NCBI GenBank assembly: GCA_963575745.1
Contig: CAUYUJ010000081.1
Coordinates: 310,001 to 374,000 of the forward strand
Length of the DNA stretch: 64,000 nt
From: Prorocentrum cordatum
Lineage: Eukaryota
Direction: 5' to 3'
A program made the position numbers and the translations under genes. The notes under the pieces were generated by a model. The model was given only the letters and a program-made list of their open reading frames with translations, was not told the DNA's origin and searched no databases. Positions 42,401-45,400 of the stretch are shown here, one piece after another; within the stretch, counting starts at the first letter, position 1; each line of letters begins with the position of its first letter.

Positions 42401-45400
42401 ACAGTGGACGACACAACCGCCACACGGTCCCAGCAGGCACCAGCCCGTACTTGACCAATACGGTTGGCACTCGGATGTAGTAATGTAGTACTCGTTGGCG
42501 CCTTCAGGAAACTAGGCTCTCAGGAAAGCGGTGACCACGTCCAGCGCCACGATGTCCCAGCCCTCGTGCTCGGCCATGGCTAAGACCATTCTGATGGCGG
42601 AGGCGTCCGCGGCATGAGTTGAGAACTCCCCGGAGTACTTGGAGGTGTGATTTCCGCAAGCCACCAACCTCACCTCCTTCTGGTCTTTGTCGAGGTCCTT
42701 GCGGCTCTTGATGCCGCAGACGCACTTGGCCGGCAGTATGTCGCTAAGCTTGACGTTATTCAGATCCTTCTCCACGACGGGGCACAAAACGCCCAGCTGC
42801 GATGTGCGATCGAGCTCCCGGCGCATCGCCTCCAGCCGCTCCTCGCGCTCACTGCCCTTCGCGGCGTTGACCTCCGCGCCCGTGACCAGCTTCAGGCCGG
42901 TCTCGACGATCTCCTTCTCCAGGAACTCGTCAAGCACCTTCAAATCCTCCTCCTGGATTTGGTGGCCCAGCTTGGCTTCCAGAGCGTCCGTCCCGGATTG
43001 CTCGTCCAACAGGTTCGCGTCTGCCTCCTCTTGGATCAGGTCGCCTAGCTCTGCCGCCACGTCAGGCGGGATGGCCGGGATAATCGAAGACACTGCGCCC
43101 CAGATGATCTCCACCAGCTCCTCCGGGTAGTCTGCCGTCGCTGCAGTGTCGGACCTTTCCCCCTTCCCGTGGTCGTGGCCCTTGTCGCAGACCTTCTTGC
43201 CCAACGTTTCCGCCAATGCCTGAAGAGTAGCTGCAATCTTCCAAGGTTTCTTGTTCACCAGGCCCACCATGCAGCCGTCGAACTCCACCACGGTCACGCC
43301 CGGCTTTCCAACGAACTCGTCAACCCAGGCGCAGGCCCAGCCAGAGCCATACCCAGGCCAGTCGAAAACAGAATGGGCGCCAGCAGCAAGCAAAATGTTG
43401 TTCTGCTTGTGGAACACCTCCTGCAGACATAACGAAGCCTCACGGCCGGCCAAAATCTTCTCTGGATTCTTCCCGTGCGCCAGCGTGAGGTCCGCCCAGC
43501 GCGTCCACGGCGATTACGGTAGAGACCACCACACCAACACCGTGCCTCCAGCAGCCGCATGCGCAGCATCGTCTGAGAAGACATTCTGCGCGGCCTCCGA
43601 GTCCAAGGAAATACCCTTCATGAAGTTCGTGATCTTCCAGCCGGTGCTGCCGAACTTCACCGTCAACTTCGGCACCTCCGAAAACGTCACCTCGAGAAGC
43701 CAAGGTTGAAGAGGCACGGGTTCGCGCACTCGTCCGGCATCATGCTCGCGGTACGTACCCATGTCGATCTCCTCCTCCTCCTCCTCCCTGATCTTCTCCT
43801 CCTGGTACTCGTTATCTTCCTGGTCCCTGATCTCCTCCTGGTCCCTGACCTCCTCCTGGTCCCTGACTTCCTCCTGGCCCCTGATCTCCTCCTGGTCCCT
43901 GACCTCCTCCTGGTCCCTGACCTCCTCCTGGTCCGTGACCTCCTCCTGGTCCCTGACCTCCTCCTGGCCCCTGATCTCCTCCTGGTCCCTGATCTTGCCC
44001 CCCTGGCCCCTGATTTCCTCCTGGCACTCGTTATGCTCCTCCTCCTCCTCCTCCTCGACGTCGTCGTCCACTTCCTGAAACCAGGCGTCTTCCAGGTCCA
44101 GGTCTGCCTCCTCCGCCTCGTCTGGGGCCTGCCGGCACTCTCCGAGGATCCTGGTGCGCGGGGCAAAACGCCCCCGGCATGCCGGGTACTGGAACCCGTC
44201 CTCCTCCACCTCCGCGGCCTCCACGGGGTAGCCGGGCAGTTTCGAGTCGTCGGCGCTGATGGCGTGGAACGTGCCGTTGCTCTCGACCTTGCCCGCGGGG
44301 TGCTCGACGTAGGCCGCGAACCTCCCGTTGCCGAGGGGAATACTAGAGTCAACTCCAAGGAATCGCCCCACGCACCCCCGCGACGCGAAGTCGCCCCGGG
44401 GCCTCTGGCGAGTCATCGCCGCCACAAGCGATCCAAAAACGGGCCCCTCCGGAGATATCTTCCTGTTCTGGTCCCGGTACCTCGCCAGGATGGCCGCGTA
44501 CGTTGCAGCGCATCCCCACCACGTCGAGGAGAGACGAGCGTCAAGGAGTAACCTGCGTGCAGAATCCTTCGGGATGCCGATGCCCCTCTCGGCTCGGGCA
44601 CTGGAGTCAGGGTCATACCCCGGACCTGTCGTGCAATGCAGCTTCCTCTCTTTCGCCGCAGCACGCACAATCTGAGCCAAGAACTCCTTCCCCAGGTCGG
44701 AGTGCATAGACCAAACCGCCTGCGTCCGGAAGGAATGGTTAATCTCGTCGATGATGTCTTTGATGGCCACCGCGGTCTCTGCGGCCGCCTTGCTTGTCAA
44801 TGCCCGGACGTAGACCCAGGTCTTCGGCTTCCCGTCCTGGTCCGCCACTCCCACTTCGGGTTCTCCGGCTGGTGCCTGTTGTGCTCCGCGGTCACGTGCT
44901 TCGTCGTGCTCTCGTGGAGCTCCGTGAACAGGTGCTTCGCCCTGTGCTCGTTGAAGTCCGCCCTGAGGTACTTCGCCCTGTCTGGGGGGCTGGAGGGCCC
45001 GCTGCATCACCCAGCGCCCCTTCGCCATTGCTCCGTCCAGGGCAGCAGCTCGCTCCTCATCTCGAAGAGGCGTGTAGGCCGCAACCAGGATGCACCGCCC
45101 CCTTGGGGCCGCAGATCTGCCCCCTTGGTTTGCGACAGCACGCGCGCGGCCCGGAAAGGTCGACACTCAGCTCACCGCCGCAACTCGCAAGTGGGTTGAG
45201 ACGAGTGCGAGGCCAACGTCGAGTCGAAGCCACTGCGCAGACAGGACAGTCTGATCGTTTCGGCAAGTGTCCACACCGGCGGCGCTCGAGCATATCATCC
45301 TGGTCGTGGACGCGCTCTTCTGGTGGTCCGTCTCCTGCTCCCTTCTGGTCAGCGGCAGCCTCTTTGACCTCCTCGGCCCTCACCTGCGGCCGACCAACCG

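Follow-up and report, generated by a model that had tools for sequence, protein, structure and literature searches.

What is a stretch of about 200 codons that is no part of canonical Copia pol doing between the integrase and the reverse transcriptase (RT) of a dinoflagellate retrotransposon? The question is raised by a long terminal repeat (LTR) element in 64,000 nucleotides of Prorocentrum cordatum DNA (assembly GCA_963575745.1, contig CAUYUJ010000081.1, positions 310,001 to 374,000) – the whole stretch that was analyzed, referred to here as the window and numbered from its first letter. An earlier note had proposed that these codons encode a cytosine-C5 DNA methyltransferase (C5-MTase, or DNMT) domain. 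We arrive, with moderate confidence, at a related answer: the window holds a degenerate copy of a conserved ~215-residue domain that has the C5-MTase fold, lacks a target recognition domain (TRD), is carried in the pol of dinoflagellate Copia elements and, in its intact members, would act in a methyltransferase-like manner on the element’s own complementary DNA (cDNA). The earlier interpretation is supported at the level of the fold and the catalytic residues.

The non-canonical codons are present, and the 43100-43712 interval first proposed for them lies close to the boundaries of the folded domain. All of the peptides quoted from them (...GW, FDGCMVG...KKPWKI, CDKGHDH and TADYPEEL) fall in the stated order within one minus-strand frame. 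The features of the domain in the window are:

43070..43720, minus strand: DNMT-fold domain without a TRD, decayed copy, ~215 residues (aligned model range 14-230), between integrase and RT

43514..43516, minus strand: in-frame TAA at the catalytic-cysteine position of a Pro-Cys motif (minus-strand translation)

43361..43363, minus strand: GAC (Asp) in place of the near-invariant Glu of the family’s (F/I)-E-W-P motif (Glu in 146 of 148 relatives)

43169..43189, minus strand: C-x3-H-x-H segment (CDKGHDH) of the family’s Cys/His cluster (translation and family alignment)

No second copy of the domain was found by tblastn within the 64-kb window. In a phmmer search of 1.84 billion representative proteins, the domain matched 369 at E<=1e-3 and 31 at E<=1e-10, the best at E 5.9e-47 and 43% identity. 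The 369 matches at E<=1e-3, each standing for a cluster at 50% identity, place the domain far beyond chance. Named members come from Amphidinium carterae and Symbiodinium natans.

To build a family alignment, we combined the window’s 240 residues (with X at the stop) with 61 of 150 listed relatives, picked for a complete or near-complete domain and a length of <=700 aa, giving 62 rows. Conservation was then counted by aligning the 150 listed relatives to the profile of this alignment, with only those covering a site counted at that site:

E23: 72 of 73 relatives

C25: 58 of 75 relatives

C26: 69 of 75 relatives

S30: 73 of 76 relatives

R45: 89 of 92 relatives

P81: 113 of 117 relatives

C82 (the window’s stop): 116 of 117 relatives

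E133: 146 of 148 relatives

W134: 144 of 148 relatives

P135: 148 of 148 relatives

C138: 96 of 148 relatives

C163: 149 of 149 relatives

K171: 143 of 147 relatives

C191: 142 of 144 relatives

H195: 112 of 141 relatives

H197: 136 of 138 relatives

C200: 68 of 135 relatives

G202: 123 of 128 relatives

Y211: 129 of 130 relatives

Family members are only 20-30% alike in sequence, yet the nucleophile Cys and the Glu are kept. The domain also occupies three different places in pol according to lineage – between integrase and RT (IN-DOM-RT), between protease and integrase (PR-DOM-IN), or after RT and RNase H (RT-RNH-DOM). Among relatives, these arrangements are distributed as follows:

IN-DOM(-RT): P0003, P0012, P0039, P0044, P0112 and the window

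PR-DOM or DOM-IN: P0052, P0053, P0055, P0080, P0059, P0128 and P0034

RT-RNH-DOM: P0016

Since the domain moves as a unit within pol and keeps its Cys and Glu, it is more likely a self-contained catalytic module under selection than a linker. We also observed that in P0050 and P0020, which belong to a Symbiodinium-type cluster, the domain is placed after the end of RNase H. P0050 continues for ~870 more residues after the domain, with a weak match to the Tpt1/KptA RNA 2'-phosphotransferase family (PF01885, E 1.6e-4, 22.2 bits, below the 26-bit cut-off).

The window’s own copy departs from the family at T25, F26, P30, N45, S51, stop82, D133, G138 and R202, and its motif I stretch reads E-V-T-F-S-E-V-P. 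Public sequencing runs offered a direct comparison, with matches to the window in small shares (0.18, 0.11 and 0.04), no match in run X4 and no RNA run among those listed. Run X2 provided a 237-base contig that is 94% like the window over 43334-43568 and carries G and C for T and T at 43514 and 43515, which gives TGC (Cys) on the minus strand; at the stop this evidence comes from a single contig of depth 3.2 that also has a one-base insertion. Together with the cysteine count among relatives, this contig bears out the claim that the stop replaces the cysteine of a Pro-Cys motif. T25, F26, P30, N45, S51, D133 and G138 are shared by the X2 contigs covering those sites and so represent changes of the sublineage, leaving only the stop as private to the window. 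The domain was already decaying in the window’s sublineage before the stop arose. Given the TAA at the cysteine, the Asp for Glu, the changes at five or more other top-conserved positions, the frameshifts in integrase and RT and an interrupted 5' LTR, the window’s copy is dead – a fossil that cannot work.

We turned to predicted structure for the origin of the domain. AlphaFold2 run with the 62-row alignment returned a model with pLDDT 91.6, pTM 0.86 and 193 of 240 residues at >=90, whereas modeling from the single sequence was of no use (pLDDT 35). The alignment-based model folds as an alpha/beta sandwich, its strands spanning 20-25, 42-46, 74-79, 129-135, 156-161 and 172-177. In a structure comparison with 48,161 representative chains, C5-MTases fill ranks 1-12, and all 50 entries shown in a second look are C5-MTases. 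They align 35-45 more residues than the rows of short-chain dehydrogenases/reductases (SDRs) and span the model over its whole length (14-230). In a Foldseek search of the PDB, chains of DNMT3A, DNMT3B or DNMT3L take all of the top ten rows, the best of them at E 1.6e-3 with a probability of 0.96. Against BFVD, Foldseek gave 3 matches at E<=1e-3, with cytosine methyltransferases making up most of the named rows; the top match is an unnamed 210-aa protein (E 7.5e-5, TM 0.51/0.57), and proteins of 212-218 aa from Lactococcus phage P087 and from Tetraselmis virus 1 (the latter with TM 0.52/0.56) are among the matches. In the ESM Atlas, which we used for leads only, the nearest named cluster is PF00145 at 0.86, with a ‘cytosine methyltransferase family protein’ cluster at 0.88. 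The predicted model thus has a class I methyltransferase fold with C5-MTases as its nearest structures, the outcome that the earlier note had anticipated from structure prediction. The fold is very probably DNMT-derived, and the domain would appear to be homologous to DNMTs beyond likeness of fold. The structural ranking places it closest to DNMT3, which may reflect the small TRD of DNMT3.

The conserved residues fall where this origin predicts. In the model, the Pro-Cys directly follows strand 74-79 and the near-invariant Glu closes strand 129-135, the strand ends occupied in C5-MTases by motif IV and motif VI. The family carries the motif IV Pro-Cys after beta4, where the window’s copy has its TAA, and a Glu at the end of beta5 within (F/I)-E-W-P in place of E-N-V, a residue that is Asp in the window and in its sibling contig. 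Glu133 would be the same residue in space as the motif VI Glu, and the Cys-to-Glu spacing is 51 residues in the family versus 47 in Escherichia coli Dcm (C177, E224). Structural alignments start with model residue 14 on DNMT3A 629 and residue 17 on M.HhaI 10. Provided that no gap intervenes early in the alignment, the family's E-x-C-C-x3-S (positions 23-30) should fall on motif I (D/E-L-F-x-G-x-G-G), with position 25 at the motif I Phe, which we take to be F640 in DNMT3A and F18 in M.HhaI. These equivalences rest on alignment ranges and residue numbering rather than on a printed residue alignment. Further along, a D-G-C-x2-G...K-K-P-W segment lies on the strand-loop-strand of 156-177, its basic K-K-P-W hairpin perhaps taking the place of the Q-x-R-x-R of DNMT motif VIII; it appears to resemble the ‘D-y-G-v-P-Q-x-R-x-R’ of that motif, and K171 would then stand for its Arg. 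A motif X can be assigned tentatively. The earlier claim that the order and spacing fit C5-DNMT motifs therefore holds for the motif IV Pro-Cys and the motif VI Glu of the family and fails for motif I, which is E-x-C-C-x3-S instead of FxGxG. CDKGHDH is present, as the note had it, and belongs to a Cys/His cluster without a counterpart in canonical DNMTs. This cluster, C-x3-H-x-H(-x2-C), stands where a TRD would sit and, to judge from its residues, probably forms a zinc site with C138 and C163.

We considered two explanations that would deny any link to DNMTs. One is that the domain is generically Rossmann-like – derived from any captured nucleotide-binding enzyme, with the Pro-Cys and Glu in place by coincidence. 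This is improbable in view of the ranks held by C5-MTases among the structures compared, the 35-45 residues by which they exceed the SDR rows over model 14-230, the BFVD and ESM Atlas leads that point the same way, and the position of the conserved pair after DNMT-like strands at a spacing near that of Dcm. The other is a cysteine protease, or another Cys/His hydrolase, that processes the polyprotein. Near-invariant Cys82, His195 and His197 would suit such an enzyme, as would a place beside the protease, which some lineages show (PR-DOM-IN), but the structure matches listed include no protease fold, the elements already have a Copia-type protease region, and the histidines belong to a C-x3-H-x-H-x2-C pattern typical of metal binding. 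We regard this possibility as very improbable. Because C5-MTases rank above all other Rossmann folds and the conserved pair lies where it does, both explanations are weak.

A cytidine deaminase (H/C-x-E...P-C-x2-C) was also considered and rejected: there is no second Cys after the Pro-Cys, and no deaminase is among the structures listed.

Several observations weigh against a C5-MTase origin and activity, beginning with the model itself, which was built on the window’s decayed sequence with X at the cysteine. No Foldseek match in the PDB reached E<=1e-3 and TM-scores there are only about 0.4, and the structurally aligned sequences are 6-9% identical. The F-x-G-x-G signature of motif I, which binds S-adenosylmethionine (SAM), was not found in the family, which has E23-x-C25-C26-x3-S30 instead. 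The strand expected between beta2 and the Pro-Cys strand (beta3), which forms part of the adenine pocket in class I methyltransferases, has no counterpart in the model's secondary structure. There is no TRD: motifs VIII and IX are separated by only ~35 residues (178-212), which hold the C-x3-H-x-H cluster, so that DNA recognition is unexplained; the domain has ~215 aa in all versus 284 for DNMT3A 629-912. Finally, the observed/expected CpG ratio of the element (0.86) is the same as that of the window (0.87), giving no sign of extra methylation-driven decay.

Sequence searches add to these points. The window’s domain matched 0 Pfam families at E<=1, and the HMMER comparison with PF00145 that the earlier note had suggested as a check returned 0 of 62 family members at E<=10. 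PHROGs gave nothing meaningful for 12 members, and a sequence profile search of the PDB gave 2 irrelevant matches, both at E>1. Profile-profile comparison was not significant: hhalign of the family alignment with 10 Dcm-like proteins reached only E 0.15, although its 16 columns, the one local match, set the family's Pro-Cys block (v-l-W-x-S-L-P-C-T-p-W-S) on that of Dcm (v-L-L-a-G-F-P-C-Q-p-F-S) and so point, if anything, toward DNMTs, and a larger Dcm-like profile (41 of 77 usable, rows >80% alike removed) gave E 0.5 in a different and meaningless region. Both profiles were Dcm-like only – neither more diverse nor of DNMT3 type – and make for a weak test of sequence homology. No sequence method links the family to DNMTs, and by the sequence criterion of PF00145 itself the family is not a member.

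The Dcm-like genes in these profiles came from two viral-contig scans (42-99% identity). With E. coli dcm as query, a word-index search gave only orthologues of at least 74% identity and a family scan only the E. coli gene; a profile search of the word-indexed database with the family alignment gave only 8 proteins. The C-terminal 158 aa of the window’s domain had no relative in metagenome contigs, and member P0008 had no close relative in viral contigs. Pfam searches of 25 long relatives at E<=0.01 detected only RVT_2, rve, SH3_retrovirus, zinc fingers and one weak PTS_2-RNA match.

What might an intact domain do? In the scheme that we infer for its use of SAM, its substrate and its biological role, the domain would be released from the Pol polyprotein, or work inside it, in the particle. 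Cys82 would attack C6 of a pyrimidine, and a group would then be transferred to C5. The substrate would be the element’s own cDNA – or, less likely, its own RNA – before integration, and new insertions would thereby enter a heavily CG-methylated genome already marked. Methyl transfer from SAM is uncertain because the cofactor loop is unorthodox, and that the family has real methyltransferase activity is, on the modeled fold and motifs, possible but somewhat short of an even chance. A bolder proposal is that dinoflagellate Copia elements carry an unrecognised clade of TRD-less ‘mini-DNMTs’ with a zinc module, active as pyrimidine-C5 transferases that pre-mark nascent cDNA with possibly little sequence specificity; we hold this to be doubtful.

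The main rival to methyltransferase-like action is a C5-MTase descendant that, its SAM loop replaced and a metal cluster acquired, no longer methylates. It would then be a nucleic-acid-binding or base-flipping module; it might bond covalently to a pyrimidine through its Cys, catalyze some other reaction at C5 or C6, or resemble DNMT3L as an adaptor by which host DNMTs are recruited or blocked. A purely structural or adaptor role leaves unexplained why exactly both catalytic positions are nearly invariant (Cys in 116/117, Glu in 146/148); DNMT3L itself has lost both. We judge a non-methylating module unlikely, and prefer a C5-MTase-fold domain that in intact elements would act on cDNA.

The element that carries the domain lies on the minus strand, with the following parts:

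40403-49279, minus strand: LTR Copia-type retrotransposon, 8.9 kb, with two LTRs and the target-site duplication AAAAG

40398..40402, unstranded: target-site duplication AAAAG, left flank (the same 5 bases lie directly outside both LTRs)

49280..49284, unstranded: target-site duplication AAAAG, right flank, abutting the outer end of the 5' LTR

40403..41133, minus strand: 3' LTR, 731 bp (blastn of the window on itself)

47824..49279, minus strand: 5' LTR, split by a 721-bp palindromic insertion at 48272-48992 (blastn self-comparison)

45599..47557, minus strand: gag-like open reading frame (ORF) with a CCHC zinc knuckle at about 46037-46084 (Pfam zf-CCHC, E 6e-5, above its cut-off, residues 492-507)

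45057..45806, minus strand: open frame that holds a protease-like part and the N-terminus of integrase (ORF list; its end aligns to the N-terminus of P0003; protease read by eye, without a Pfam match)

44075..45248, minus strand: integrase-like region with a frameshift near 45125 (tblastn of relatives P0003 and P0012)

43818..44024, minus strand: acidic tandem repeat (EEVRDQ-like) in the linker between integrase and the DNMT-fold domain (Tandem Repeats Finder, period 18, 11.3 copies)

42512..43069, minus strand: linker and N-terminal part of RT, in the same frame as the extra domain (weak Pfam RVT_2 at residues 823-884 of an 884-aa read-through)

41238..42503, minus strand: C-terminal part of RT and RNase H-like part of pol, open frame of 421 aa (Pfam RVT_2, E 4.3e-9; tblastn of the RT-RNH part of P0016 covers 42479-41241)

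The minus-strand order is gag-like, protease-like with the integrase N-terminus, integrase core, acidic repeat, extra domain, RT and RNase H. With integrase upstream of an RVT_2-type RT, two LTRs and a 5-bp target duplication, the element is Copia-type. The LTRs are 96.9% identical over 40403-40850 versus 47824-48271 and 94.8% over 40847-41133 versus 48993-49279 (blastn of the window on itself), and a purine-rich, putative polypurine tract, read by eye, lies on the minus strand beside the 3' LTR (reverse complement of 41134-41155). In tblastn, residues 8-48 of P0003 align in frame -3 (45248-45126) and residues 49-365 in frame -1 (45124-44075), and residues 462-621 of P0012 align to 42949-42470. 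These relatives read through where the window has frameshifts, near 45125 in integrase and at 42450-42470 in RT, and the C-terminal part of the window’s RT is in a different frame from the N-terminal part. The window’s own integrase ORF has no Pfam rve match, and that of P0003 itself is only weak; long relatives carry rve and SH3_retrovirus. With the in-frame TAA, two frameshifts and the 721-bp insertion in the 5' LTR, the element lacks autonomous gag-pol coding capacity.

We noted further peculiarities of the element. The insertion at 48272-48992 is found in the 5' LTR and not in the 3' LTR; it is a near-perfect palindrome with AAAT-like flanking bases (48326-48997 matches its own reverse complement at 91.9% in an inverted blastn self-match) and looks like a foldback element or a miniature inverted-repeat transposable element. 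The 18-nt unit at 43818-44024 encodes an acidic EEVRDQ-like array, whereas in the closest relatives, P0001 and P0003, the linker is acidic and non-repetitive. On the plus strand the LTRs start with CAAGATG (40403-40409) and finish with GAGATG (41127-41133), so that in either orientation they end in CA...TG instead of the usual TG...CA. A 160-bp stretch just left of the element (40094-40253) recurs with 90.7% identity at 50243-50401, ~1 kb past the right end, and the element may have inserted in or near another repeat.

Elsewhere the window has tandem repeats and long open frames:

13621-15770, 17358-19195, 26139-28184, 30914-31450, 51324-53554 and 62069-62569: very long microsatellite arrays

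20813-21881: satellite-like tandem repeat, units of 134/267 bp, 7.7 copies

24095-24866: satellite-like tandem repeat, unit of 275 bp, 2.8 copies, 92% matches

36170-37618, 55365-56363, 57287-58246, 59297-61111 and 61644-63999: long open frames (319-604 aa) outside the element

The microsatellite arrays include (ATC)n over 2.1 kb, (TAC)n, (TCA)n over 1.6 kb, (TGTA)n, (TGTGTGCG)n over 2.2 kb and (GAT)n, and they are the source of spurious ORFs of great length in several reading frames. Pfam returned no family at E<=1e-3 for ten further long ORFs of the window; the sequence is GC-rich, and they may be genes or artefacts of composition.

How does the domain compare with known captures? Passages of one study (PMC5890265) describe DNMTs in Symbiodinium LINE (long interspersed nuclear element) and DIRS elements and in a Klebsormidium Gypsy element, so that the earlier note was right to recall LINE and DIRS captures in dinoflagellates. 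The same passages place DNMTs within the pol of Symbiodinium DIRS, for which de Mendoza et al. propose methylation of cDNA, describe the Symbiodinium genome as heavily CG-methylated, and state that Copia, its most abundant retrotransposon superfamily, ‘lacks any DNMT domain’ (PMC5890265). A passage on Symbiodinium Copia elements elsewhere lists only integrase, RT and RNase H (PMC5776459). EpiLTRs of Cymbomonas and Euglena carry DNMTs, according to the part of a preprint that treats them (bioRxiv 10.64898/2026.05.21.726589). A 2025 paper mentions ‘LTR Copia and DIRS’ in a sentence citing the work of PMC5890265 (PMC12344493); ‘LTR Copia’ there seems to stand loosely for the Gypsy element. Full-text searches, with subscription journals and supplements outside their scope, yielded no description of the domain family.

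As far as these passages describe them, SymbioDIRS-Dnmt3, KnitGypsy-Dnmt3, SymbioLINE-Dnmt and the EpiLTR DNMTs resemble the Copia domain in placing a DNMT fold inside a retrotransposon, in some cases within Pol, and retrotransposon DNMTs share with it an occurrence in dinoflagellates, a domain order shuffled between lineages and a proposed marking of the element’s own cDNA. They are detectable with PF00145 and keep the key residues, whereas the Copia family is invisible to PF00145 (0/62), sits in another host superfamily, lacks both the TRD and F-x-G-x-G and has an added Cys/His cluster. The catalytic domains of DNMT3A, DNMT3B and DNMT3C are 7-9% identical to the Copia domain, which is ~70 residues shorter, has no ADD or PWWP partners and does not conserve the SAM loop. 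Short viral cytosine-methyltransferase-like proteins of 210-250 aa (A0A0A0RJX0, Tetraselmis virus 1 A0A2P0VN45 and Lactococcus phage P087 C3U2K5) share its size class and fold, provide the best Foldseek matches overall and are of the same kind as the nearest named ESM Atlas clusters; they differ in being free-standing genes without detectable sequence relation, whereas the Copia domain is part of a polyprotein. An arthropod Copia with a captured methyl-CpG-binding domain, as outlined in PMC6673714, likewise joins Copia to DNA-methylation machinery, but in another host group and with a reader domain rather than a writer-type fold. We class the family as a very divergent case of a retrotransposon capturing a DNMT, one that brings in Copia as a new superfamily of such elements.

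Capture of DNMTs by transposons is a recent theme in how mobile elements meet host silencing, and this family would add Copia to the LINE, DIRS, Gypsy and EpiLTR elements known with captured DNMTs. Profile-based surveys would miss so large and very divergent a branch (369 clusters at 50% identity), and its compact architecture – no TRD, an unorthodox cofactor loop and a Cys/His cluster – provides a test of the minimal C5-MTase fold. The value lies in the family revealed, the window’s copy being a fossil. Dinoflagellate DNA is known for unusual base modifications, and the family may indicate a new activity on it. If the bolder proposal of an active ‘mini-DNMT’ clade is true, no smaller C5-MTase architecture would be known in eukaryotes, dinoflagellate DNA modification would draw on enzymes from three element classes (LINE, DIRS and Copia), and pre-marking, possibly of little specificity, would let new insertions blend into a hypermethylated genome.

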